In this document: piece after piece, positions 30,261 to 63,590 of the stretch
Layout of the letters: each line of letters starts with the position of its first letter
Numbering within the stretch: the first letter of the stretch is position 1
Source: Myxococcota bacterium
Lineage (GTDB): Bacteria > Myxococcota_A > UBA9160 > UBA4427
Assembly: GCA_965250285.1 (NCBI GenBank)
Contig: OZ252299.1
Location: 4,384,001-4,448,000 of the forward strand
Length of the DNA stretch: 64,000 bases
Direction of reading: 5' to 3'
Position numbers and translations under genes: made by a program
Notes under the pieces: model-generated
What the model was told of the DNA's origin: nothing
Seen by the model: only the letters and a program-made list of their open reading frames with translations
Database searches by the model: none

Positions 30261-32201
30261 ATGGGTCGTCACACACTGCGCCTGTTGTGCGCGAGCCTGA
30301 TCGTCGTGGCCATCGCCGGCGTCGGCCACACACAGCCGCGCACCGCCACCCGCGACGTGCTGCTCGGCATGCACGAGCGCATCGTGCTGAGCAGCGACGT
30401 TCAGCGCATCTCAGTCGGCAGCCCGCGCGTGCTGAGCGTCGAGGTGCTGAGCAGCCGCGAGCTGCTCGCGCTCGGCCAGGCCATCGGCCGCACGAACCTG
30501 ATCGTCTGGTACGCCGACGGCCGCACCGAAGACTTCCAGTTCGCCGTCGTGCGCGACCTGTCGCTGCTGCGACAGATCCTGCGCGACATCTACCCGACGC
30601 TGCGCGCCTCGTCGGCCCCCGACCGCGACGCGATCATTCTGCGCGGGTCGGTGCCCGACATCCGCTACTCGCGACTCGCCGAGAGCGCCGCGGCCGGCTA
30701 CCTGCAGGCGGGCGTTTCGGGTCGCCGCAGCGGCGCTCAGCCCGTTCTCCCGACCGCCGAGGCGTCGGTCGCGAGCGCGGAGAGCGCCGACGGCGCGGTC
30801 GAGATCGCCGAGACCGTGATCGAGCGCGCCTCGTCGCTGCTCGGCGTCGAAGGCGGCCGGGGCCGCGCGCAGATCATCAATCTGATCCAGGTGGGCGAGC
30901 TGCCGGCGACGCTCGAAGAGCGCGTGCGGGCAGCGATTCTGCCGATCGGCGGCGCCGACGTGACCGTGCGCCGCATCGTGCGCGGTCAGATGCGCAACGA
31001 CGCCATCGACACCCTCGTGCTCGAAGGCGAGGTCGACGGGCAGGTCGAGCTCTCGCGCATCCTGATCGCGACCTCGACCGTCGTCACCGGTCGCGGCGAC
31101 CGCCAGATCGACGTGCTCGCCAACGAAGCGGGCGCCCTCAGCAACTTCGGCGGCGGCGGGGGCGGCGGCGGGGGCGGCGGAGGCGGTGGCTTCGGCGGCG
31201 GTGGAGGCGGCGGGGGCGGCAACATCGGCAGCTCGGGCCTGCGCGTGAACGCGATTCGCTCGAACATTGCCCGGGCGAAGGCGCTCTCGACCGCCGGCGG
31301 CCGGGTGCTCGCGTTCATTCACGTGCGCGATATCCCCCAGGTGCGCGTCCAGGTGCGCGTGTTCGAGGTCAACCGCACCCGGCTCAAAGACTGGCTGCCC
31401 GAGGTCAATGCCGTGAAGGTCGACCAGGGCCAGAGCGTGCAGCCGCCGCTGATCCCGCCCACACCGGGCGGCGGCGGAGGCGTTTCGCCCGACTACAACG
31501 GCACCAGCTATCAGATGGCGACGCGCATTCTTCAGGGCGCGGCCTCGAGCCAGTGGCAGGTCGTCGCCAGCGATTTCGCGATCGACATCTTCATGGCGAT
31601 CCTCGAGAGCGAGGGCGTCGCGCGCAGCCTCGCGCGTCCGACGCTCACGGTGCTCTCGGGCGAATCGGCCACGTTCAACGTCGGCGGCGCCATCCCGATC
31701 AACCGGACGCTCACGACCGCCGCCGGCAATCAGAGCTTCAGCGACGTGTTCTTTCAGGATTTCGGCATCTCGCTCGGCGTTCGGCCGCTCGTCGGCGAGG
31801 ACGACGTGATCACGATGGACGTGAACCCCGACATCTCGTTCCCCGACGCCGCCCTCACCGCGGCGCTGAACATCGGCACGAGCGACGGCAGCAGTACCGC
31901 GGCCTTCGAGACCCGCACGCTGAGCACCAGCGCGCGCGTCGCCGACGGCGAGGTGCTCGCGATCGGCGGCCTGATCCAGCAAGAGAAGTCGATCGACTCT
32001 TCGTACACGCCGGTGGCCCACCAGATCCCGGGGGTGGGGTGGTTCGGCAAGAGCATCAGCCGCGATCAGGACGAGACCGAGGTGGTGATCCTCGTGAGCC
32101 CCACGATCGTGCGCGACCCGATCAACGGTGTCGGCTTGTGGGCCTATCCCGACCCGATGGAGCTGATGCCGCCGCCGCTCGATGAACCCGAGGCTTCGTG
32201 A
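30261..32201 (+). CDS. rcpA: Tad secretin RcpA/CpaC
   Basis: N-terminal GRTNLIVW pilus-assembly domain; QVRVQVRVFEV, LARPTLTVLSGESATFNVGG, FGISLGVRP, IGGL, ETEVVILVSPTIV. Confidence 0.88.
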   Translation: MGRHTLRLLCASLIVVAIAGVGHTQPRTATRDVLLGMHERIVLSSDVQRISVGSPRVLSVEVLSSRELLALGQAIGRTNLIVWYADGRTEDFQFAVVRDLSLLRQILRDIYPTLRASSAPDRDAIILRGSVPDIRYSRLAESAAAGYLQAGVSGRRSGAQPVLPTAEASVASAESADGAVEIAETVIERASSLLGVEGGRGRAQIINLIQVGELPATLEERVRAAILPIGGADVTVRRIVRGQMRNDAIDTLVLEGEVDGQVELSRILIATSTVVTGRGDRQIDVLANEAGALSNFGGGGGGGGGGGGGGFGGGGGGGGGNIGSSGLRVNAIRSNIARAKALSTAGGRVLAFIHVRDIPQVRVQVRVFEVNRTRLKDWLPEVNAVKVDQGQSVQPPLIPPTPGGGGGVSPDYNGTSYQMATRILQGAASSQWQVVASDFAIDIFMAILESEGVARSLARPTLTVLSGESATFNVGGAIPINRTLTTAAGNQSFSDVFFQDFGISLGVRPLVGEDDVITMDVNPDISFPDAALTAALNIGTSDGSSTAAFETRTLSTSARVADGEVLAIGGLIQQEKSIDSSYTPVAHQIPGVGWFGKSISRDQDETEVVILVSPTIVRDPINGVGLWAYPDPMELMPPPLDEPEAS

Positions 32202-32392
32202 TGTACTCTCGGGAACCGAACCTCGAGGACAGGCACTGTGTGATCGGGGAGGTCCGCAGCGTCAGAGGATGCGGCAGAAAGCACACAGTCGTGGCCGATT
32301 CGTCTCAAGGAGTCGCCACGTCGCGACATGAACAACGAACGCCTCAACCGCCCAGTTCTCTGGGCGCAAGTTCATTGGTGAAGGAGTGAACC

Positions 32393-32797
32393 ATGCGAAT
32401 GCGAACCAAGCTTCAGCGGCGACGCCAGGGCGGTGCCGCTCTGGCCGAGTACGGATTGATCGTGGCCGGTGTCACGATGGTCAGCCTGGTGGCGGTGTCG
32501 GTCTTCGGCTCGAAGGTCGGCGGCCTGATCGGCACGTCGGCGACGTTGCTGCCCGGCGCGTACACCGATCAGAACGCGCCCGTGCAGGTCGGTCAGCTGA
32601 TCGAGACCCGAACGGTCGACTCGAACCAGGACGGCGTGAAGGAGATCGTCGTCGACGCATCTCGGATCGCCGACGACGGCGGCGCGCTGCCGGGCAACGA
32701 GCCCACCGTACCGCGGCTCGGTCAGTCGATGGGGTTCGACGCGCACGACACGTCGCACCTCTATCAGCTGGGTGATCAGGACAACATGTTCCACTGA
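32393..32797 (+). CDS. Flp-type pilin with extended C-terminal domain
   Basis: Basic leader, G|AALAEYGL (E+5, Y+6), hydrophobic helix; AAGGAG RBS. Confidence 0.8.
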   Translation: MRMRTKLQRRRQGGAALAEYGLIVAGVTMVSLVAVSVFGSKVGGLIGTSATLLPGAYTDQNAPVQVGQLIETRTVDSNQDGVKEIVVDASRIADDGGALPGNEPTVPRLGQSMGFDAHDTSHLYQLGDQDNMFH

Positions 32798-32856
32798 GCC
32801 GAAGGCCTGGGGGCGCAAGCCCAACTGGCCGTGGACTCGGGAAATGTTGAGGTCGA

Positions 32857-33855
32857 ATGCAGACTCCCGATTCAAAGTCGAGGCGCCGCGAACGCGGCGG
32901 CGTGCTCGTTGAGTTCAGCGTCGCCGTCATGGCGCTCTGGCTCATCGTGGCGGCGACCCTCGACTTCGGCCGCGCCTTCGCCGCATCGCATGTCCTGCAG
33001 AGCGCAGCGCGCACCGCGACGCGCGCGCTCGCTCTGCAGGAAGTGGCGTGGAATGCAGATTTCAAGACGGCGCTGGGCAGCGTCTACGACGAGCGGTACC
33101 TCGTCCAGGACGCCGACTGTCTCGAGAACGTGGCGCGTGGCAACAACCGCAGCCTCGCCGAAGAGCTCGACGCTCAGCTGCAAGAGCAGGGGCTGATCCT
33201 CAACCGGATGCTGCAGCCGCTGATGATCTTCGAGGTCGTCTCGGTCGACGGCCCGGCGCAGCGCCTGATTCGGTATCCGGGCGCGCTGCTTCGAAACGGG
33301 TTGCCGCAACGCAACGAAAACCGGCCCTGCTCGACGCGATTCACGGTTGGGGTGCCGGTCGTCGACGACACCCTGCGTGAAGTCCGATTCCACGCGGTCG
33401 TCGAGGAACTCGATCCGGGGGCGTTCGGGCTGAGCGAGGAAGACCCGCCTGAGGACAACCGCGTCCTGCCGGGCACGGTCACGATGCGACTGCACTACCC
33501 CTTCCAGGCGGTCGGCCTGTCGGCGTGGCGGATCATCGGCGGCACGAACCGGCCGGTCGAACTAGGCGAGACGGATGGCTACGCGATCGAAGACCTGGAC
33601 AAAGTTGGCGCCTCGATGATCGATGCCCTCGATGACGTGGACGCCGACGGATCGTCGCGCGCCTACGCGGTGAACGAGGCGGGCGCCACGATCCCGGTCT
33701 ACGCGGGCCGAATGGGTCTCGGCGTGCAGGGACTGCTGAACAAGCAGGTGCGACCGTTCCGGCGCGTGATCACGGCCCAGGCCATCATGCCGCGCGAAGT
33801 CGTATCGACCCCGATCCCAGAGGCGTCGAGCGGCGGTCAGGAGTCGAGCCCGTGA
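32857..33855 (+). CDS. TadE-like pseudopilin
   Basis: RRRERG|GVLVEF, LDFGRAF, SAARTATRA. Confidence 0.78.
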   Translation: MQTPDSKSRRRERGGVLVEFSVAVMALWLIVAATLDFGRAFAASHVLQSAARTATRALALQEVAWNADFKTALGSVYDERYLVQDADCLENVARGNNRSLAEELDAQLQEQGLILNRMLQPLMIFEVVSVDGPAQRLIRYPGALLRNGLPQRNENRPCSTRFTVGVPVVDDTLREVRFHAVVEELDPGAFGLSEEDPPEDNRVLPGTVTMRLHYPFQAVGLSAWRIIGGTNRPVELGETDGYAIEDLDKVGASMIDALDDVDADGSSRAYAVNEAGATIPVYAGRMGLGVQGLLNKQVRPFRRVITAQAIMPREVVSTPIPEASSGGQESSP

Positions 33856-34793
33856 GCCGGCGAAACGCAAGAAGAAGGCGTCGGCTGAACGTCTCGACCC
33901 TGCTGCTGCCGACCGTGCTGGTCGTGATGGCGGTGGGCGGTCTGGCCCTGGTGGCGTCGTCGCTCGGCTGGCTCGGCGGTTCGGACGATCGACCGCGCGG
34001 CCGACCGCCCGGCACCATCGCGGTGCCCGTCGTCGCCGTACCGATCTCGACCTATACCCGGGTGCGCCTCGAGCACCTGATCGACCCGCGCACCGGCGAT
34101 CTGCGCGCGGTGTATCTGCCCGAGAGTTCGCTGCTGCCCGAGACGATCATCGACGCGAAAGAGCTGATCGGTCGCGTCGTCGCCACCGACAAGAAGGTGG
34201 GCCAGCTCTTCGGCCAATCCGACTTCTTTCCGCCCGGCACCCGCGAAGGCATCGTCGCCGGCATTCCGCCGGGCAAGCGCGCGCTGCGCATCGACGCGCG
34301 CAAGGTCTCGGGCATCGTCGGCCTCGGCCGAGGCGATCGCTTCGATCTCGTCGCGACGCTCGACTACACGCGCACGGCCGGCAACCGGCTGCAGGTCGAA
34401 GGCGCGCCGTCGGGCGGCCTCGGCAGCCTCGGCTCGCGCATGGGCACGTCGATCGTCGTCGAAGACGGCGCGGTGGTTCAGCCGCTCGAGACGCGCGCTG
34501 TGCCCGGCCAGCAGGCCCAGCTCGTCGAAGAGATGGTGATCGCGGTGGCGCCCGACGAGGTCGAGTCGCTGACCCGGGCCCTGCACTCGGGCGCCCGCAT
34601 CGACTGCGTGCCGCGCTCGGGGCGCCCCGTCGACGTCTCGGCCGGCCCGCCCGCCGAGTCTTCACCGCGCCGCTCGGGCGGGCTCAACGTGGTCGAGACG
34701 ATCACGGGCGGGCAGCGCCGCGTGCTCGCCGTGCCCTCGGGCTCCGACTTCGGCACACCCGAAGTCGCCGACGCCGACCCGCGAGGCCGCTAG
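33852..34793 (+). CDS. CpaB/RcpC-like SAF domain protein
   Basis: TM anchor, ELIGRVV, IPPGKRALRI, GDRFDLVA. Confidence 0.8.
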   Translation: MSRRNARRRRRLNVSTLLLPTVLVVMAVGGLALVASSLGWLGGSDDRPRGRPPGTIAVPVVAVPISTYTRVRLEHLIDPRTGDLRAVYLPESSLLPETIIDAKELIGRVVATDKKVGQLFGQSDFFPPGTREGIVAGIPPGKRALRIDARKVSGIVGLGRGDRFDLVATLDYTRTAGNRLQVEGAPSGGLGSLGSRMGTSIVVEDGAVVQPLETRAVPGQQAQLVEEMVIAVAPDEVESLTRALHSGARIDCVPRSGRPVDVSAGPPAESSPRRSGGLNVVETITGGQRRVLAVPSGSDFGTPEVADADPRGR

Positions 34794-34795
34794 CG

Positions 34796-36043
34796 ATGCT
34801 GCCGCTCGTCGCCGTTCTGGCGTTCGCCCTGCTCTCGATGGGCGCCCTCGCCGTCGACCTCGGCGCGGCCGCCGCCCAGCAGAATCGACTGCAGAGCGCG
34901 GCGGAGGCCATGGCGATGGGCGCGCACCATCAGGAGCGCCGCTTACGGCTCGCGTTGTTGCGTGACGAAGACGACGTGAACGAGAACGGGAACGCCACCG
35001 CAGCGAGCATCAACTGCGACGATTTCTCGTTGACCGGATGCAGCGAAGAGATCGACCTCGCCGCAGATGCCTACGGCGAGCGCCTGGCCGACCTGATCCT
35101 CAACAGCGAGACTGTGGCCGCCGACCGAAACCCCACGGTCAACCTCGGCCCGGGTGCGGCGCTCGCGGACGTCGAGTCGATCGGGTCGGGCGCCGCCGAA
35201 GGAAGCGAGCTGGTCGGGGCGCTTCCGGAAGGCGTCGAAGACTGCGCCGATGGGTGTTGGGGCGCTCTCGTCCGACAGGCAATGCCGCTGCTCTTCGGTC
35301 AGGCGTCGATGCTCGGCTTCTCCGAAGGCGAATCGCTGCGCGACCTGCAGGCGGCCCGTGAGGACGGACAGGGGTTCGTGGGCGATGGCACGCCGGTCGC
35401 CGGTTCGCTGCGCACGCGCGGGATCCCGATCCGCGCCATCTCGGCCGTCGACGTCATGCCCGTCGTCGCCATCGGGCGGGCTCACGACGCGTCTGCCGAG
35501 GAAAGCGACCTTTTCCGCCCCATCGGACGAGCGCCCTTCACCCTCGAGTTCGAAGCGTGGGCCGACGGCACGTTCGAGCCCGGCAGCAGCCAGATTCTCA
35601 CCGTCGAGGGCCTATCGCTTCTTCCCGCCACGGCGGACGCCGACAGCGGCCAGGCCGAGGCGCCTGCGGTGGGGCGCATCATCGTGGGCGCAGACCAGGG
35701 GCTGCGGGCCGGCGAAACGATGACGACTCAACCCGGGGTTGTGGCCGAATCGCTGCCGGGCGTCGATCCCGAGTGGATGTACGTCCCGTTGACGATGCCC
35801 ACCGGCCAAGACGACGCACTTCCCATGGTCGTCGGCTTCGGACTGGTGCGGGCCCAGTCGGCCGCGGACGGTGAAACGCTCACCGTCGAGCGAAGCCCCT
35901 CCCACGTGCAGTTTGCGCTCGGCAATGCGAGCGCGTCCGCCCGCTCGCTCTCGAGGTCGAGCGACATCGGCGCCCTCCTCAGCATGCACGCGCAAGATGA
36001 CCGCATCCGATCGCAGGTGCTGCAGGCGGCGGTCCCGCGATGA
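34796..36043 (+). CDS. TadG-like protein
   Basis: GALAVDLG...LQSAAEAMAMGA Tad N-terminal signature. Confidence 0.72.
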   Translation: MLPLVAVLAFALLSMGALAVDLGAAAAQQNRLQSAAEAMAMGAHHQERRLRLALLRDEDDVNENGNATAASINCDDFSLTGCSEEIDLAADAYGERLADLILNSETVAADRNPTVNLGPGAALADVESIGSGAAEGSELVGALPEGVEDCADGCWGALVRQAMPLLFGQASMLGFSEGESLRDLQAAREDGQGFVGDGTPVAGSLRTRGIPIRAISAVDVMPVVAIGRAHDASAEESDLFRPIGRAPFTLEFEAWADGTFEPGSSQILTVEGLSLLPATADADSGQAEAPAVGRIIVGADQGLRAGETMTTQPGVVAESLPGVDPEWMYVPLTMPTGQDDALPMVVGFGLVRAQSAADGETLTVERSPSHVQFALGNASASARSLSRSSDIGALLSMHAQDDRIRSQVLQAAVPR

Positions 36044-37296
36044 CGACCGCGAACGACGCAGACGCGGCGCGCACGCTCCACGTGCTTGTCGTCGGGCCCG
36101 AGACCGAGCTCGGGGACGAGCTGCGCGAGGCGCTGCGGGCGACCACCGATACTCGGGTGTCGTTGCGCCAGAGCTTCGACTACGCCGAGGCGGGCGACGC
36201 CGTGCGTTCGCGCCAACCCGATCTCGTCTGCGTCGAACTCGGCGCCGATGCCGACGCGCTGCGCGGCTTCGTGGCGTCGGTGCGCGCGATGGCCCCCGAC
36301 CTGCCCTTCGTCGGCGTACAGGCGCGCAGCAGCGACGGCGACGCCGCGGGCCGCGACGTGCTGGTGGAGGCGCTGCGCACCGGGTTCGTGGATGTCATCG
36401 AGCGGCCCGTCTCGAGCGCCGATCTACGCCGTGTCTGGCCAAAGGTCGTGGCCGCCTCGCGCGATCTGCACGCCCAGGGCCACGTCGTCGCCTTCCACAG
36501 CACCAAGGGCGGCGTCGGCAAGTCGACGCTCTCGGTCAACGTCGCGGCCGGGCTCGCGCGCAACCGCCCCGACCGCGTGCTGCTGATCGACGCCTCGCTG
36601 CAGCTCGGCGTCTGTGCCGCGGCGCTCGACCTGTCGCCGCGCACGACGCTGGCCGATGCCGCGCGCGAGCGCGACCGTCTCGACGAGACGCTGCTGCGCG
36701 AGTTCAGCGCGCGGCACGAGTGCGGGCTGCGCGTGCTCGCATCGCCCTACAACCCGATCGATGCCGCCGACGTCGACGACGAGTCGCTCGCGCGCATCAT
36801 CGCGATCGGTCGGCGCGCGTTCGACTTCGTCATCGTCGACACGCTGCCGACCGTCGACGGCACGATGCTCACGATCCTCGACCTCGCCGACCGCATCTTC
36901 CTCGTCAATCAGGGCACCGTGCCCGACGTGATCGGCGCGGCGCGCCTGCTCGAGACACTCGACGAGCTCGGCATCGGCGAGGATCGCCGGTCGGTCGTGC
37001 TCAACCACAACCTGCCGCGCTTCACCGGCGCGCTGACCGCCGACGAGGTCGGCGACCGGCTCGGGCAGGACGTCGACTACGAGATCCCCCACGATAAGAA
37101 GGTGCTCACGGCGCTGAACCTCGGTGAGCCGCGGGTGCTGAAGGCCAACCGACGCTTCGGCTGGGGCCGCGCGATGCGCGAGCTGATCGAAGACGTCGAC
37201 GAGCTCAGCGACACCGAGCCGACCGCGGGCGCCGGGGGCAGCGAAGACGTCCGCGAGCTCGAGCCCGAGTGGAAGATCGCCGAGGTGAAGGCGTGA
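36040..37296 (+). CDS. CpaE/TadZ (receiver-like domain + MinD-like ATPase)
   Basis: STKGGVGKST, LLIDASLQLG, FDFVIVD. Confidence 0.88.
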   Translation: MTTANDADAARTLHVLVVGPETELGDELREALRATTDTRVSLRQSFDYAEAGDAVRSRQPDLVCVELGADADALRGFVASVRAMAPDLPFVGVQARSSDGDAAGRDVLVEALRTGFVDVIERPVSSADLRRVWPKVVAASRDLHAQGHVVAFHSTKGGVGKSTLSVNVAAGLARNRPDRVLLIDASLQLGVCAAALDLSPRTTLADAARERDRLDETLLREFSARHECGLRVLASPYNPIDAADVDDESLARIIAIGRRAFDFVIVDTLPTVDGTMLTILDLADRIFLVNQGTVPDVIGAARLLETLDELGIGEDRRSVVLNHNLPRFTGALTADEVGDRLGQDVDYEIPHDKKVLTALNLGEPRVLKANRRFGWGRAMRELIEDVDELSDTEPTAGAGGSEDVRELEPEWKIAEVKA

Positions 37297-38693
37297 GCGT
37301 GGCCAGCAAGCACGAAGATCTGCGTCGGCGGCTGCGCGGCACCCGAACCGACGAGATCCGCGGCTGGAAGCGCGCGCAGGCCACCACGCCGAACGAGGCC
37401 GAGCCGGCCCCCCAGAGCAACGCGCGATCGATCGATCTCAAGGGCGAGCTGCAGGCGCGCCTGCTCGACGAGATCTCGAGGCGCGGCCTGCTCGGTGCCG
37501 ACGACAGCGAGATCGTCGAGGCGGTCAAGGATTTCGTCGAGCCGATCCTCGAAGAAGAAGATCTGCCGCTCAACGCGGCCGAGCGCGGCCGCCTCGTCGA
37601 CGAGCTGATCGAAGAGACGCTCGGGGTGGGGCCTCTGGCGCCGCTCATGGCCGACCCGGCCGTGACCGACGTGCTGGTCAACGGGCCCCACGACGTCTAC
37701 ATCGAGCGCTTCGGGCGCATCGAAGAGACCTCGGTCGGGTTTCGGGACGAGGCGCATCTCCTGCGCGTGATCGAACGCATCGCGGCCCGCGTCGGTCGCC
37801 GCATCGACGCGGCGTCACCCATGGCCGACCTGCGCCTGCCCGACGGCAGCCGCGTCAACGCGACGATCCCGCCAGCCACGCCCGACGGGCCGACGCTCTC
37901 GATTCGCCGCTTCGGGCGCCGCCGCCTGCGCGCGCGCGAGCTGCAGAAGCTCGGGTCGTTCTCGGAGACGATCGGGGCGTTCCTGTCGACGGCGGTGCGC
38001 TACCGGTCGAACGTCTTGATTTCGGGCGGCACGGGCGCGGGCAAGTCGACGCTGCTCGGTGCACTCGCCGAGTCGATCCCCGCCAGCGAACGCGTCGTGA
38101 CGATCGAGGACACCCTCGAGCTGATCCTCGACCAGAAGAATCTCGTGCGCCTCGAGGCCCGACCCGCGAACATCGAGGGGCGCGGTCTGATCACGGCGCG
38201 AGACCTGGTCGTGAACAGTCTGCGCATGCGCCCCGATCGCGTCATCGTGGGCGAAGTGCGCGGGGGTGAAGCGCTCGACATGCTCCAGGCCATGAACACG
38301 GGCCACGACGGCAGCCTCAGCACGGTGCACGCCAACTCGCCCCGCGATGCGCTCTCGCGCGTCGAGACGATGGTGCTGATGGCGGGCGTCGATCTGCCGT
38401 CGCGCGCGATCCGCGAGCAGATCGTGTCGGCGCTCGATCTGGTGGTGCACGTCGAGCGCTACGAAGACGGCGTGCGGCGCATCTCGAGCGTCGCCGAGCT
38501 GACGGGGCTCGAGGGCGAGACGGTGCTGATGCAGGAGATCTTCCGCTTCGAGCGCCGCGGACTCGAGCCCGGCCGCGTCGTCGGTGAGTACGTCGCGACC
38601 GGCATCGCCCCGCGCTGCGTGCAGGACTTCCGGGCGCGGGGGGCCGACATTCCCACCGCCTGGTTCCAGCCCACCGGGACGCGGCCTCGATGA
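37293..38693 (+). CDS. tadA: CpaF/TadA pilus assembly ATPase
   Basis: GGTGAGKST, TIEDTLEL, LRMRPDRVIVGEVRG, AMNTGHDGSLSTVHAN. Confidence 0.95.
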   Translation: MSVASKHEDLRRRLRGTRTDEIRGWKRAQATTPNEAEPAPQSNARSIDLKGELQARLLDEISRRGLLGADDSEIVEAVKDFVEPILEEEDLPLNAAERGRLVDELIEETLGVGPLAPLMADPAVTDVLVNGPHDVYIERFGRIEETSVGFRDEAHLLRVIERIAARVGRRIDAASPMADLRLPDGSRVNATIPPATPDGPTLSIRRFGRRRLRARELQKLGSFSETIGAFLSTAVRYRSNVLISGGTGAGKSTLLGALAESIPASERVVTIEDTLELILDQKNLVRLEARPANIEGRGLITARDLVVNSLRMRPDRVIVGEVRGGEALDMLQAMNTGHDGSLSTVHANSPRDALSRVETMVLMAGVDLPSRAIREQIVSALDLVVHVERYEDGVRRISSVAELTGLEGETVLMQEIFRFERRGLEPGRVVGEYVATGIAPRCVQDFRARGADIPTAWFQPTGTRPR

Positions 38694-39412
38694 AACGCCG
38701 CCAGCTCTTTCACTCGATCGCGGCGCTGGGCGTCGCGTTCGTCGCTGTGTTCGCCTCTGCGTGCGCCACCGACGATCCGCTCGGCCCCGGCTTGAAGGAC
38801 CCGACGGTTCGCCTCGACGACCTCTTGAACGAGTGGTGGGCGCCGCGCGAAGAGGGCGGCACCTGTGCGTCGGGCGGAGGCAAGTACCCGTACGTCGACT
38901 GTGGCCGCGTGCAGGCCGAGATCGAGCGACTGGTGCTCGAGTTTCCGAACCACCCCGACGTGTTGCTCGCGAACGCGGTGATCGCCTTCGAGACACGTCA
39001 GCCCGAGAAGGCGCTCGACTATCTCGACTCACTCATGGAGCTCGAACACATCGAGCCGGGCGTCACGGTGCTGCGGAGCCGCATCGCGATCGACCAGGGC
39101 AACCTGCCGTACGCACGGCGCCTGCTCGAGGCTCAGGCGCACATGGCGCCCGATGCACCGGACATCCGAGAGGCGCTCGCGGCGGTGCACTATCTCTCAG
39201 GCGAATATGATGCGTCGCATCGCGAGCTGATCATCGCCGAGCGGCTCGGCGCACCGGCCTGGCGCATCGCCTTCAACCGCGGCCTGATCGAAGAGGCTCA
39301 GGAGAACTTCGGCGCGGCGATGGAGCAGTACCGCCTGGCTCTCGACGAGAACCCCGAGTACGAGCCCGCGCGCTCGAGACTGCGAGGCCTCGAGAGCACG
39401 CGTGGTCTTTGA
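38690..39412 (+). CDS. TPR lipoprotein (TadD/pilotin-like)
   Basis: Lipobox ASAC, TPR-like helices, last gene of the tad operon. Confidence 0.72.
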   Translation: MKRRQLFHSIAALGVAFVAVFASACATDDPLGPGLKDPTVRLDDLLNEWWAPREEGGTCASGGGKYPYVDCGRVQAEIERLVLEFPNHPDVLLANAVIAFETRQPEKALDYLDSLMELEHIEPGVTVLRSRIAIDQGNLPYARRLLEAQAHMAPDAPDIREALAAVHYLSGEYDASHRELIIAERLGAPAWRIAFNRGLIEEAQENFGAAMEQYRLALDENPEYEPARSRLRGLESTRGL

Positions 39413-39444: not shown

Positions 39445-39792
39445 TCAGGCGCCGGCGCTCACCGCACCGTGATGATCACAGTGGCCGCCGTGAGGATGGT
39501 GCAGGTGGCCGTCGACGAGGTAGTCGATGTGATCGCCGTGCGGGACGGCCTCGTGGCCGCAGCCGGGGCCATGCGTGTGCGCCCCGTCGTGACCTGCGCA
39601 GGTGTGATCGGGCGTGCAGTCGGCCGGATTGTCGGCGCTCACCGAGAGCGAGTGCTCGTCGACATGACCGTCGTGCGGATGATGCAGGTGGCCGTCATGC
39701 AGATAGTCGACGTGGCCATCGTGCTGCACCGTCGTGTGGCCGCAGTCGGGGCCGTGGGTGTGCGGATGGTTGGCGTGCTGCTGGCATCGCAT
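39445..39792 (-). CDS. Small His-rich putative metal-binding protein
   Basis: 115 aa with about 28 His; two copies of HTHGPxCGHxxVxHxxHxDYLxDGHLHHPH; GAGGAG RBS. Confidence 0.85.
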   Translation of the reverse strand: MRCQQHANHPHTHGPDCGHTTVQHDGHVDYLHDGHLHHPHDGHVDEHSLSVSADNPADCTPDHTCAGHDGAHTHGPGCGHEAVPHGDHIDYLVDGHLHHPHGGHCDHHGAVSAGA

Positions 39793-40062
39793 GAGCGGGT
39801 CTCCTCGATCGAATTCCGGGGACGCAGTGACCAGTGTAGCGTCGTCTCCGGCATCGACGCGCCCCGATCCACCGCGTACGACTCGTTCTCGACCGAACGC
39901 GACCGTGTGTTGAGTGGGGCCCGACACGCTCAGGCGAGCCTCGGCCGCCCGTGGCGTTGAAACGCACACACCCTAGTATCTGAATACGCGTTCGGTCCCA
40001 TCGACCGCCGCGCGACCGAGTGCCGGGACGCCGGTCGCCCTGCCCCTTCGAGGAGAGGTCGC

Positions 40063-41187
40063 ATGTCACGCGTCGAAGAGACGATCCCCGCGGCGTTGCA
40101 GCCCGCGGTCGATGCATCACTGGCCTGGTTCAACGCGCAAGAGAGTGAGCGCTTCGAGGTGACCGGCATCGTCGACGCCGCCGATGCGGGCGAAGTCTCG
40201 GGCGAGCAGCGGCTGCGTTTGATCCTCTGCGGAGGCGATCGCTGTGAGCAGCGCTCGTTTCGCGCGGTGCCCGAAGGCGACGCCTTCGCAATCTCGTTCC
40301 TCGACGAGCCGGCGCCGGGTGCAGACGCGCCCGAACCGCGGCTCGACCCGCCGCCCGGTGCCCGCCGCGGTTGGCTCGATGGCGTGCTCGGCCGACACGC
40401 ATTCACCGTGCTCGTCTTCTACCGGGGCTTCTGGTGACCGCCCTGTCGCTCCGAGTTGCGGGGCTACGTGAAGGCAGGGGTCGCCGATCGGGTTCGAGCG
40501 GCCGGCGGCGAGATCTACGCGATCTCGAGTGAGCCACAGTCGCTCTCTGGCCGCGCCGCCACCGAGTGGGGGCTCGACTTCGAGTGCGTCGGCGATCCGC
40601 ACCACGAGATCGCCGACGCGTGCCGCGAGCGCGGCCTCGTCGATCTGTTCGTGAACCAGGAGACCGAGTTTCTCGAACGCAGCGTCGCCGCCGGCGGGGC
40701 CGACTTTGCGCCCACGCATCCGAAGGGCTTCTTCCAGCCGGGCGTGCTCGTGCTGCGAAGCGATGGACGGGTGCTGTATCGGTGGCGCGGTGTTCCGACG
40801 CACAACAACATGGGCGGGGCCACCGAGCGCCCGACGGCCGAGTATGTCTGGTCGAACGTCGAAGCGGCCCTGGCGCAGGGCGAGGCGGTTGCCGACGCCG
40901 ATCTCGACACCGAGCCGCAGCTCGATTCGCGCGGCCTTCCGTGGATCGTGTTCTCGAGCCTGTTGATCGCCAACGGCTGGTTCCTCCGCGGGCGGGGCTT
41001 TCGCGGCCCTCAGCAGATCATGCAGGCCGGCCTTCGGCTCGTTGGCTTCGTCGCAGCGTGGCTCGCTGCCTTCATCTGGCTCCCGACCCTGCCGGTCGCG
41101 GTCGCACTGGCGGGCTGGGTCGTCTACATCACGCCGAAGGTGCGCTGGCTCGGGCGCCAGTTTCAGGACGTGCGCGGATCGCTCTGA
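40063..41187 (+). CDS. Putative selenocysteine-containing AhpC/TSA (peroxiredoxin-like) membrane protein
   Basis: In-frame TGA at 40435-40437 in FYRGFW-U-PPC; frame continues into ORF 40456-41187; SECIS-like hairpin downstream. Confidence 0.8.
40444..40468 (+). promoter_or_regulatory. Candidate bacterial SECIS element
   Basis: Stem GCTCCG/CGGGGC (40448-40464) starting 11 nt after the UGA; loop AGTTG contains GU. Confidence 0.55.
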
Positions 41188-41404
41188 CGGCGCCGATGCG
41201 GCGCGGCCCGAAACCCGGACAGAACGTCGCCCGGCTCTCAATGGCCACCCGCGTTCCCGCACACTTCGCGGCGATCCCGTCCAGATTCTGATTCGCGACC
41301 TCTCGGGCGATCCCGGTGTCCAAGAGACACCCCCGCGCCTGGAGAACACCGTGCCGGATCGACCGTGCCATCCTCTGCGCCGCCGCAGCTCGAGCCGTGG
41401 CTCG

Positions 41405-42628
41405 ATGCTCCTCCCCTTCTCGATCGCGCTGATCGCGCTCGCGCTCGGCGCCTGCGCTTCGAAGCCACCCCCGCGCGAGTACGTGTTCGGATGGCCGGAC
41501 TTCCCGCACGCCGACGTCACGCCGCGCGGCGGCACGAGCCTGGGCGCCCCCGTCACGCTGCGCACCGAGCCCACGAAAGCGTGGCTGGCGCTGCAGGCGA
41601 AGGATCTCTCGCCCGAAGAACGCGATCAGGCCGCGATTCGCGCGCTCGCCGGCGACTACCGCGTCTCGTTCGACTTTCTCGAGACGGTGATCTTCGACGA
41701 CAATCTCGAGCCAGACCAGCCCTATCGGTCGTGGGGCACCGAGAAGGTCTACGTGCTCGAAGACCGACCGGGCTTCATCTCGCTGCAGCACGTGATGGTG
41801 ATGTTCATGATCGACGACGACGACAACGTCGTTGGTCCGTTCGTGCAAAAGCACTGGCGGCAGGATTGGCAGTACGAGCCCGAACGCATGCACGTCTACG
41901 AAGGGTTCGATCAGTGGACGTGGCGTGCCGTGCCCGAGGCGAATCGCCGCGGCGCCTGGAGCCAGACCGTCTATCAGGTCGACGATGCGCCCCGCTACAC
42001 GCTGCTCGGGCGCTGGACCCACGCCCCCGACTTCTCGACCTGGCAGAGCGAAGACGATTGGCGTCCGCTGCCGCGGCGCGAGTCGACCGTGCGCGACGAC
42101 TATCAGGTGCTCGCCGGCCCCAATCGCATCACCGTGCTGCCGACGGGATGGATCCACGAGCAGGACAATCTGAAGCGGGTCATCGAAGCCCCGGGTGACG
42201 ACGCGGGCCCGGTCATCGCACGCGCGAGAGAGATCGGGCTGGCTCGATACGAGGAGCTCGACGACTTCGACTTCGAGGCGGGCGATGCGTACTGGGAGCG
42301 CACGGGCGACGCGTGGGCCGAGGTCCGCGCCGGATGGCAGGCCCGCATCGATGCGTCGCCGACCCACACGATCGCGGCCAACTGCCAGGAGACACCGGTC
42401 TTCGTCTCGCTCTTTCTGCTGACCGACCCCGAGATGCGAGCCGCGCACGAGGCGGCGATGGCCGAGGCAGCCGCCGCCGAGGGCGACGAGGCCGCGACCG
42501 AACCGAGCGAGCCACCCGACTTCGACGACGCATTGGCCGAAGTGCTCGACTGCGTCGTGAAGCCGGTGGCCGGCTCGGCCGGTGATCAGCCGAGCGTGCC
42601 TACTTCCACTCGCCCGAGTCGGTATTGA
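41405..42628 (+). CDS. DUF6607-like lipoprotein
   Basis: Lipobox LGAC; YRVSFDFLET, ISLQHV, KHWRQDWQYEP, QVDDAPRY, WRPLPRRE, GWIHEQDN. Confidence 0.72.
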   Translation: MLLPFSIALIALALGACASKPPPREYVFGWPDFPHADVTPRGGTSLGAPVTLRTEPTKAWLALQAKDLSPEERDQAAIRALAGDYRVSFDFLETVIFDDNLEPDQPYRSWGTEKVYVLEDRPGFISLQHVMVMFMIDDDDNVVGPFVQKHWRQDWQYEPERMHVYEGFDQWTWRAVPEANRRGAWSQTVYQVDDAPRYTLLGRWTHAPDFSTWQSEDDWRPLPRRESTVRDDYQVLAGPNRITVLPTGWIHEQDNLKRVIEAPGDDAGPVIARAREIGLARYEELDDFDFEAGDAYWERTGDAWAEVRAGWQARIDASPTHTIAANCQETPVFVSLFLLTDPEMRAAHEAAMAEAAAAEGDEAATEPSEPPDFDDALAEVLDCVVKPVAGSAGDQPSVPTSTRPSRY

Positions 42629-43424
42629 GGCTGAGCACCTTGGTGGTGCCCATCGGGCTCAGCGCCACGGCGTAGTAGCGGCCCTCGTTGTGCAGGTAGA
42701 ACGTGCCTGCACCGCTGCCCATGTCGCCGAGGTTGCACGCGGCGTCGAACGAGACGGGCATGCCCTCGGGCCGGAACATCACCCAGCTCGACGGATTGCC
42801 CGACGGGTCGCTGAAGCTCGAGCCGTTCGAGGTGCTGCCGGTGATCGAAGGATCGGGAGCGGGTGCGGCAACGAGCCCGCCGCCGCCGTCATCGCTGTCG
42901 TCGTCATCGTCGTCGCCACTCACGCCGCCGAGCGGCGCGCCTGCGACACCGCCCTGCGCGGCGCCGGGCGTCGCGCCCACCACGAGCGGGCCGAGATCGA
43001 CGAGGGGCATCGGGTAGCCGGACGGCAGGTCGGCGACCTTGTCCATCTTCGACGCCTTTTCTTCGGGCACCGTGATCATCGACTCACCCGCGTCGATGCG
43101 GCAGTTCTGGTCGGCCGAGCCGGGCGCACCGTCGTTCACGATGGCGATCGAGACAGGATCGCCATTGGCATCGACCAACGGATTGCCCTCGGCGTCCTGG
43201 AACACGAAGAGGAGCTGCACGTCGCCGGTGCGGATCGCCTCGCCGCGCGCCATCTCCATCGCGCCGTCGAGCGCGAGCGCGGTGTCGCGCAGCTCGCCCG
43301 CCTCGCGTGCACTGTTGAGCCGCGGAACGGCGATCACCACCGCGACGGCCAGAACGGCCATCGTGATGCCGACCTCGGTGAGGGAGTAACCGACGCGACG
43401 CCGGTCGAATCGTGAAATGGACAT
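42600..43424 (-). CDS. GspH/FimT-like prepilin (N-methylation domain)
   Basis: RRRVG|YSLTEVGITMAVLAV, ARGEAIR, MFRPEG, ALSPMG. Confidence 0.78.
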   Translation of the reverse strand: MSISRFDRRRVGYSLTEVGITMAVLAVAVVIAVPRLNSAREAGELRDTALALDGAMEMARGEAIRTGDVQLLFVFQDAEGNPLVDANGDPVSIAIVNDGAPGSADQNCRIDAGESMITVPEEKASKMDKVADLPSGYPMPLVDLGPLVVGATPGAAQGGVAGAPLGGVSGDDDDDDSDDGGGGLVAAPAPDPSITGSTSNGSSFSDPSGNPSSWVMFRPEGMPVSFDAACNLGDMGSGAGTFYLHNEGRYYAVALSPMGTTKVLSLNTDSGEWK

Positions 43425-43805
43425 ATCGAGACACCTCATGGACCGCGAACCGACAGGCGGGTCGTGATCGGTTGCAACTCCTCGGCGCCGAGCGCTCCCC
43501 TCGACTGGCTCGGTGCGCGCGACTTTGCGCTCGCCCAGGAGTTCGTGCCCTCAGAGCGTGAGCAGGGACACAGAAACTCGTTTTTTCGTATCGGCTCACC
43601 GGGCGGGATCCTGAGGATTCTTGAGGCCTTTCTGCCCCGACACTCTATGGTGACGTTTCGCCCGAACTCGAAATCGAATGGCCTAGACAGCGATTGAGCG
43701 AGCAGCTGCGGGCGCATGCGCGCGCAACGCGGGCGCAGCTCGACTCGCCGCGCCATGCCACGCCGTGCGCACGCTGGAGCATTCCAGCTCAGGCGGAGTG
43801 GCCGC

Positions 43806-62987: not shown

Positions 62988-63590
62988 TCAGAGCTGATCG
63001 GCCTCGGTCGAGAGGTAGCTCGCCACACCCTCAGGGCTCGCCGTCATCCCCTTCGAGCCCTGGTTCCAACCGGCGGGACACACCTCGCCGTGCTCTTCGT
63101 GGAACTGAAGCGCGTCGACCATGCGAAGCATCTCGTCGACGTTTCGCCCGAGCGGGAGATCGTTCACGACCTGGTGGCGCACGACGCCCTCCTTGTCGAT
63201 CAGGAACGAGCCGCGCAGGGCCACCCCGCCCGGCGTCTGTACGTCGTAGGCACGACAGATCTCGTGACGCGTGTCGGCCACGAGCGTATAGCCGACCGGG
63301 CCGATGCCCCCCTGGTCGACGGGCGTGTTGCGCCAGGCGTTGTGGGTGAACTGCGAGTCGATCGACACACCGATCACCTCGACGTCCTTCGACTTGAACG
63401 CATCCATGCGGTGGTCGAACGCGATCAGCTCACTCGGGCACACGAAGGTGAAGTCGAGGGGATAGAAGAAGAGGACCGCGTACCTGCCCTTCCGCGCCTC
63501 AGAGAAGGTCAGGCTGTCGACGATCGAGCCGTCCGCGAGGACGGCGGCTGCAGTGAAGTCCGGGGCGGGTTGCCCAACGAGTACGCTCAT
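62988..63590 (-). CDS. ahpC: Typical 2-Cys peroxiredoxin (AhpC/Prx1)
   Basis: FYPLDFTFVCPSE, GRNVDE, GEVCPAGW. Confidence 0.92.
   Translation of the reverse strand: MSVLVGQPAPDFTAAAVLADGSIVDSLTFSEARKGRYAVLFFYPLDFTFVCPSELIAFDHRMDAFKSKDVEVIGVSIDSQFTHNAWRNTPVDQGGIGPVGYTLVADTRHEICRAYDVQTPGGVALRGSFLIDKEGVVRHQVVNDLPLGRNVDEMLRMVDALQFHEEHGEVCPAGWNQGSKGMTASPEGVASYLSTEADQL

Follow-up and report, generated by a model that had tools for sequence, protein, structure and literature searches.

Gene structure and features of the locus

The window, by which we mean the whole 64,000-nucleotide stretch of DNA analyzed here, contains on its forward strand a reading frame that runs from an ATG at position 40063 to a TGA stop at 41185-41187 and holds a single internal TGA, at 40435-40437. 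When this codon is read as selenocysteine (Sec), the product has 374 residues and a U125-P-P-C128 redox motif in the context FYRGFW-U125-PP-C128. An ORF listing under translation table 11 cuts the gene in two, at 40063-40437 (124 residues) and 40456-41187 (243 residues); an earlier note on this DNA had joined these same-frame ORFs into a protein of 374 residues, and both the listing and the translation agree with it. A likely ribosome-binding site precedes the ATG (Table 1), no comparable site was seen directly upstream of TTG 40456 or GTG 40468, and homologs share the start register M-x-x-V-x-E-x-I-P with ATG 40063. The Pfam model AhpC-TSA (PF00578) matches residues 113-186 of the joined protein with 36.5 bits (cut-off 26) and matches neither half-ORF when these are searched singly. 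Scans at the locus found no promoter-like site and one terminator-like site, on the opposite strand and at chance level, and none of the public runs listed was an RNA run holding the stretch.

Table 1. Features of the selenoprotein gene, in positions of the window
Feature	Position	Strand	Basis
Whole gene, 374 residues, one in-frame UGA as Sec	40063..41187	+	Frame; codon and residue conservation
Likely ribosome-binding site GAGGAG	40050..40055	+	Sequence; 7 nt upstream of ATG 40063
N-domain, predicted cystatin/monellin-like alpha+beta fold, about residues 7-85	40081..40317	+	AlphaFold2 models; structural matches
Cys pair C56/C61 across a predicted beta-hairpin	40228..40245	+	Invariant in aligned rows
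Prx/Trx-fold core, about residues 96-277, with R121, U125, C128, C187, H219, Q225-P226	40348..40893	+	VIA; Foldseek; conservation
Sec codon UGA (U125 of U-P-P-C)	40435..40437	+	TGA in 44 of 49 copies, TGY in 5
bSECIS hairpin, 6-bp stem, loop AGUUG	40448..40464	+	Covariation; decay in Cys copies; codon constraints; model fit
C-terminal membrane anchor (predicted)	40936..41160	+	AlphaFold2 helices; Kyte-Doolittle; flanking basic residues

Conservation of the UGA codon

The search for other copies covered 185,579 species genomes; 243 related stretches passed confirmation, and the best 80 of them were kept. Among these 80, 48 loci (L020-L067) match the N-terminal part, and the other 32, which are core-only, were excluded from codon counts. 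Together with the window, this gives 49 copies, some of them partial or broken (L058, L064-L067). The codon at the U125 position is TGA in 44 of the 49 copies with this architecture and TGY, for Cys, in 5, so that the Cys-aligned homologs that the earlier note had proposed looking for do exist. Codon counts use DNA loci only, since "Cys" homologs in databases (e.g., P0059) are indistinguishable from proteins in which U has been written as C. The earlier note had also held that TGC or TGT in reads would point to a sequencing error or a recent mutation; contigs of the three public runs with the stretch show only TGA, these runs being from one study, possibly on the source sample, and not independent.

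The nearest homologs are found in Myxococcota bins. The genome itself and 40 relatives contain 19 near-full-length matches (3 in the genome itself and 16 in 13 relatives), a set that may overlap the 80 loci and in which all 19 have the in-frame TGA; in one of the 40 relatives the copy is split, and 26 lack a full copy. The two paralogs in the same genome, at G000:C1 2489981-2491078 (+) and 4543818-4544963 (+), have the same three parts, the TGA, and the same hairpin. They are 51% and 46% identical to the protein studied here, and the three copies sit in different branches of the tree. Damaged copies also occur: in L065, which has Cys, a stop follows the motif by 10 codons; a TGA copy at G034:C17 160971-162131 carries an extra TAG; and another copy, at G006:C104 33762-34894, is split in two frames.

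In protein collections, a profile of the N-domain matches 1545 clusters of short proteins. Among the 120 N-domain matches listed, 117 end at R-G-x-W, that is, they are cut at the UGA, and 116 are shorter than 260 residues.

The bSECIS hairpin and its imprint on the protein

The earlier note had described a hairpin with a GU-containing loop from 11 nt past the UGA, and the stem, in which 40448-40453 pairs with 40459-40464, does begin at +11. The loop AGUUG (40454-40458) lies 16 nt past the UGA, and the 17-nt hairpin has a folding energy of -8.3 kcal/mol. As given in the Fig 2 legend of PMC13188914, the bSECIS model has a loop of 3-9 nt with a G in loop positions 1-2, a stem of 4-16 bp, a spacing of 16-37 nt, and an MFE of -7.5 or lower. 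The hairpin satisfies this model with its 5-nt loop, G in second place, 6 bp, 16 nt, and -8.3 kcal/mol. Its stability is not significantly different from that of shuffles (z -0.28 to +0.48), and a loose SECIS-shape screen of this genome, which is 69% GC, passes 14,814 TGA sites; we therefore count only covariation as evidence for the hairpin.

Among 41 distinct TGA copies, 99.6% of stem cells pair, 30 cells are altered on both sides, and one stem position shows five pair types besides the commonest. This pairing was reached by 0 of 500 shuffles, in which kinship was ignored, and registers slid along the sequence pair at 31-57%. Pairing in the 5 Cys copies drops to 80%, mostly G-U.

In TGA copies, changes of stem pairs alter residues 130 and 134 jointly (L-G in 13 copies, S-G in 10, R-G in 11, S-S in 7, and A-G, F-S, and H-D in 1 each). 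Leu132 is encoded by TTG or TTA in 43 of 44 TGA copies versus 192 of 1409 other Leu codons, and Glu131 by GAG in 44 of 44 versus 571 of 1010 elsewhere, the background being counted from 42 TGA genes with placeable starts. Arg133 is fixed in all 44 TGA copies and is replaced by Leu in 5 of 5 Cys copies. Arg133 stays constant only as long as the SECIS is required, and residues 130 and 134 move in pairs.

Selenocysteine machinery and a likely Sec-to-Cys switch

Presence of selA, selB, selC, and selD in the genome had been suggested as a check in the earlier note, and all four were found: SelA (434 bits), SelB (317 bits), SelD (281 bits), and tRNA-Sec(UCA) (62.6 bits, anticodon TCA; called SeC by ARAGORN). 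SelA scores at least 314 bits in 39 of the 40 genomes that hold 43 TGA loci, the exception being a 2.3-Mb bin. A strong SelA is found in 0 of the 5 genomes with Cys copies, which are incomplete bins, one of them with matches of at most 36 bits. The only tRNA-Sec match above cut-off among these genomes, in G044, was rejected as a tRNA-Ser.

This contrast counts as one event and not five, because the Cys copies form a single clade. A quick IQ-TREE tree was built from 60 rows, omitting L036, whose genome contributes another copy, and all copies shorter than 330 residues or lacking a placed start. In it the Cys copies cluster together (SH-aLRT 99) inside Sec lineages, and their neighbor is a Sec copy of a Verrucomicrobiales bin that has SelA. 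When the Sec/Cys column was masked, in 38 rows with long outgroup branches, a topology that places all Sec copies together was rejected marginally (p-AU 0.041). The sequences point to a likely history of one Sec-to-Cys replacement, alongside spread into SelA-less genomes.

Given the alternation of TGA and Cys, the covarying hairpin, and the Sec machinery with its co-occurrence across genomes, we are highly confident that this is one gene whose UGA encodes Sec and whose product is a Sec-containing UxxC oxidoreductase, much as the earlier note had claimed when it read through the UGA.

Catalytic core and predicted membrane anchor

The full-length AlphaFold2 model, made from 48 rows, has a pLDDT of 92.6 and a pTM of 0.81. 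VIA matches its core to PrxQ/BCP, AhpE, 1-Cys Prx, and PRXL2B/PGFS with Z 14.3-12.4, the best match being to a Prx fold (Z 14.3, rmsd 2.7, 135 aligned), and ranks ResA/TlpA-type matches lower, at Z 9-11; the best PDB sequence matches are to ResA/TlpA-type oxidoreductases and are weak (E 0.05). Canonical peroxiredoxins (PrxQ/BCP, AhpE, AhpC, Prx6) are thus the closest solved folds (Z 13-14, rmsd 2.4-2.8, about 135 residues), but their PxxxT/SxxC motif and catalytic Arg are replaced here by R121, U125, and P226. In an hhalign comparison with the BCP-type peroxiredoxin of the same genome, a weak profile match (probability 48.5%, E 0.00018), R121 falls at the Pro, U125 at the Thr, C128 at the peroxidatic Cys, and P226 at the Arg. 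We take this Arg, before the sixth core strand, to be the catalytic one, and likewise presume the other catalytic roles in BCP.

With other residues in place of the catalytic Pro, Thr, and Arg, the protein is not a canonical peroxiredoxin, and this placement of R121, U125, C128, and P226 makes it a Trx-type UxxC enzyme. The label "peroxiredoxin-like" given in the earlier note therefore holds for the fold only. The earlier note had the UGA at the first redox Cys of FYRGxWCPxC; Sec stands at the first, Trx-type position, and the peroxidatic Cys of BCP aligns with C128. P226 is kept in 38 of 39 Sec rows. C187 is present in 39 of 39 Sec rows, but 3 of the 4 Cys rows have Ile there and some Sec reads of the GOS data lack it, which rules it out as an obligatory resolving residue.

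The C-terminal transmembrane helices that the earlier note had seen are also predicted here, as a short hydrophobic helix (294-304) followed by a helical hairpin (316-339 and 342-366). Kyte-Doolittle values in 19-residue windows are moderate, at 1.6-2.0 over residues 319-356 with a peak of 1.97, and homologs are alike in this. With no signal peptide and a C-terminal hydrophobic hairpin, the protein would keep its soluble domains on the cytoplasmic side. It is most likely a membrane-anchored, cytoplasm-facing thioredoxin-fold selenol/thiol oxidoreductase.

The N-terminal domain

An extra N-terminal domain of about 100 residues with the motif LCGGDRC had been part of the earlier description; the domain spans about residues 7-85, and LCGGDRC is residues 55-61. 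Its two cysteines, C56 and C61, are conserved without exception in the alignments (48 of 48 and 45 of 45 rows) and present in 120 of the 120 N-domain matches listed, with CX4C spacing in 34 of 45 and CX8C in 11 of 45.

Folded alone with AlphaFold2, the N-domain reaches a pLDDT of 79.9. Cystatins rank first in VIA (Z 8.3, rmsd 2.4, 71 aligned), a Z of about 8 being within the range that the tool gives for common arrangements, and 13 of the first 14 rows are cystatin-fold proteins or scaffolds by title; the assignment of these matches to the cystatin family is in part our presumption. Foldseek returned nothing at E<=0.001 (best E at least 0.047), and Pfam Cystatin gives weak matches to 3 of the 45 members (best E 0.019). 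On neither the N-domain nor the C-terminal domain does any Pfam or NCBIfam model score above its cut-off. In its predicted helix-over-sheet fold the N-domain may resemble the cystatin superfamily, but it differs in being fused to a selenoenzyme and in lacking the inhibitory motifs of that superfamily (see below); this would be a likeness of fold and not an established homology.

By profile search of protein clusters, the N-domain was seen only with the UxxC core, and in 17 longer proteins it has no other Pfam partner. In P0167, the N-domain is joined to the membrane part with the core missing, and in P0302 the UxxC segment is skipped; both are possibly assembly artifacts.

Relationship to known selenoproteins

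Prx-like selenoproteins with UxxC were described from the Sargasso Sea in 2005, and it is UxxC rather than TxxU that defines the Prx-like thiol:disulfide oxidoreductase selenoproteins in that account (PMC1088965). They also form a row in Table 1 of a 2026 catalogue, a table with no separate row for the three-part architecture (PMC13188914). Dataset S1 of the 2008 GOS study has 33 occurrences of the motif with U, and 14 of the 16 reads with the motif that were examined resemble the present subfamily, by eye from shared motifs and unaligned (PMC2398784). Under the heading "#Prx-like 1", some reads of the subfamily carry the N-domain (e.g., JCVI_READ_1056998) and some the membrane tail (e.g., JCVI_READ_1091140598399); these reads come before the heading "#Prx-like 2", and one more stands under a later heading (PMC2398784). 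The gene shares with Prx-like 1 the PF00578 match (36.5 bits against 26), UxxC instead of TxxU, and a bSECIS, but that is a broad bin, and the three-part architecture is absent from the four fusions in Fig. S1 of that study (PMC2398784). The earlier note had called the selenoprotein hidden, which is true for gene callers but not for the literature, where the family stands under "Prx-like 1" in the 2008 dataset.

In a search of mostly openly accessible literature, no description of the three-part architecture was found, nor any paper joining selenoprotein, selenocysteine, and Myxococcota. Neither the mechanism of recoding nor the class of enzyme is new; the present analysis adds a predicted cystatin-like domain with its dithiol, a covariation of residues that is driven by the SECIS, and what is likely a single switch from Sec to Cys.

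PRXL2B/PGFS (FAM213B) and SelL-related proteins have a Prx-like fold with CxxC or UxxC. PGFS (Z 12.4) reduces an endoperoxide via its CXXC and carries a conserved Arg four residues ahead of the first Cys (PMC12938796), a spacing that R121 and U125 also show. The two proteins are only 16% identical, and PGFS and the SelL-related proteins lack the N-domain and the C-terminal hairpin. The SelL-related model NF040769 matches residues 112-243 with 21.4 bits, below its cut-off of 120.

Among the closest core-only relatives (P0267, P0270, P0284, P0239, P0253, P0236, P0286) are CxxC proteins of probably eukaryotic origin in which the core is joined to RasGAP, RGS, DEP, kinase, or RCC1 domains; P0199 is from Paulinella. 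The core may serve here as a redox-sensing module in protist G-protein signaling.

Other genes in the window and the genome

Over 49 loci, with labels assigned by eye, no neighboring gene recurs beyond sulfatase-like genes in 10 and common catabolic enzymes in at most 6. Since neighbors are not conserved, gene context gives no operon or substrate clue. Upstream in the window, a run of genes at 30261-39412 (+) resembles by eye a Tad/Flp pilus cluster and ends in a TPR protein, the latter confirmed by Pfam; the others we take to be secretin, pilin, TadE-like, CpaB-like, CpaE-like, and CpaF-like ATPase genes. A divergent His-rich ORF at 39445-39969 (-) has repeated H-G-P-x-C-G-H and H-x-D-Y-L-x-D-G-H-L-H motifs, no Pfam or NCBIfam match, and no recurrence among related loci; it possibly encodes a small metal-binding protein. 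Downstream lie a DUF6607 protein (about 41380-42628, +) and a GspH-like pseudopilin (42600-43439, -), both unlinked to the selenoprotein in other loci, and a peroxiredoxin of the AhpC type, which has the standard P-x-x-x-T-x-x-C motif, is encoded at about 63174-63578 (-).

The genome looks selenoprotein-rich, as 8 of its 21 PF00578 matches carry an in-frame TGA at the UxxC site. Three of these are the paralogs already described, and the other five are in G000:C1 at 1311505(-), 2346227(-), 3873714(+), 2320460(-), and 3754623(-); two of the five have a long C-terminal extension, two have N-terminal hydrophobic helices, and one is fused to a part that resembles by eye a short-chain dehydrogenase. 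Three related C-F-Y-U-T (CxxU) sites with hairpins and a coding signal on both sides occur in G000:C1 near 3573817 (+), 5740006 (+), and 3186092 (-) and probably belong to AhpD-like selenoproteins. A dicodon-based screen of the genome for further selenoproteins gave 190 candidates; it is no census, since the gene at 40063-41187 is absent among the candidates listed.

Proposed function and alternative explanations

By the established SelB/bSECIS pathway, SelB carrying Sec-tRNA would bind the AGUUG loop and insert Sec, and without this insertion translation would halt to give the 124-residue fragment. The Sec125 selenolate would then attack the substrate, C128 would resolve the adduct, forming a selenenylsulfide, and re-reduction would come from thioredoxin or from further thiols of the protein itself (C187, C56/C61). 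By analogy to PRXL2B/PGFS, the substrate may be a hydrophobic peroxide at the membrane, to which we give somewhat less than an even chance; a peroxidase role is weakened by the absence of the Prx catalytic set. Membrane-protein disulfides are a tentative second candidate, and a substrate of any other kind appears rather unlikely.

The second of these candidates corresponds to an alternative that concerns the substrate step only. Here, the selenoprotein would be a protein-disulfide reductase or isomerase, with electrons passing between the UxxC core and the C56/C61 dithiol and from the dithiol on to a partner, much as in the N-domain of DsbD. The Cys pair never varies, although the loop between its members has either 4 or 8 residues. 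The N-domain, which is found solely with this core, lacks a signal peptide, and a purely structural disulfide would therefore be less expected. The core also retains a Trx-type Pro where Prx has Arg, and the best, though weak, PDB sequence matches are to ResA/TlpA-type proteins. However, the predicted N-domain fold is cystatin-like and not Ig-like as in DsbD-N, and structural neighbors of the core rank Prx-type (Z 12-14) over ResA/TlpA-type (Z 9-11). On balance, we hold this disulfide chemistry to be possible but hardly the leading expectation.

It is improbable that the N-domain is a cystatin-like protease inhibitor or protein-binding module that is redox-gated by the Sec core. Bacterial cystatins exist (PMC2784779), and both the cystatin-fold proteins that dominate the top structural rows and the few weak Pfam matches would be in keeping with such a role, but the cystatin inhibitory motifs QxVxG and PW (PMC2784779) are each found in 0 of 45 N-domains, the Z of about 8 is in the range of a common arrangement, and Foldseek gave no match at its threshold.

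That the UGA is a true stop, with two genes, a pseudogene, or a sequencing error at the locus, would agree with standard gene calls and with the separate halves in public collections, but is very hard to reconcile with the persistence of this TGA in 44 copies, spread over several phyla, at a catalytic Cys position of which intact Cys versions exist, with a hairpin that covaries, SelA that co-occurs, and contigs without a variant base, and with a stop that would part the first strand of the Trx fold from its active-site helix. Reading of the UGA as Trp, Cys, or Gly through code reassignment or leaky read-through is just as improbable: nothing specific speaks for it besides the Cys homologs, which show that Cys can serve there, but this gene and many homologs end in TGA, the sole UGA-reading tRNA identified is of the Sec type, and a SECIS-like constraint would be needless.

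Returning to the selenoprotein reading, the predicted cystatin-fold domain with its C56/C61 hairpin dithiol could conceivably be a built-in electron shuttle for the membrane-anchored UxxC core, giving a cytoplasm-facing relay within one chain, although we consider this rather unlikely. Equally speculatively, the proteins would then constitute a distinct selenoenzyme family, widespread in marine bacteria and nearly always annotated as two hypothetical proteins. If the N-domain is a redox relay, it would be a new partner domain for thioredoxin-fold chemistry. The genes also make a clear textbook example of how a signal in the RNA can shape the sequence of a protein. Mainly, however, the finding is a fix of annotation, which corrects a systematic misannotation: the N-domain profile matches 1545 clusters, and 117 of the 120 matches listed are cut at the UGA.
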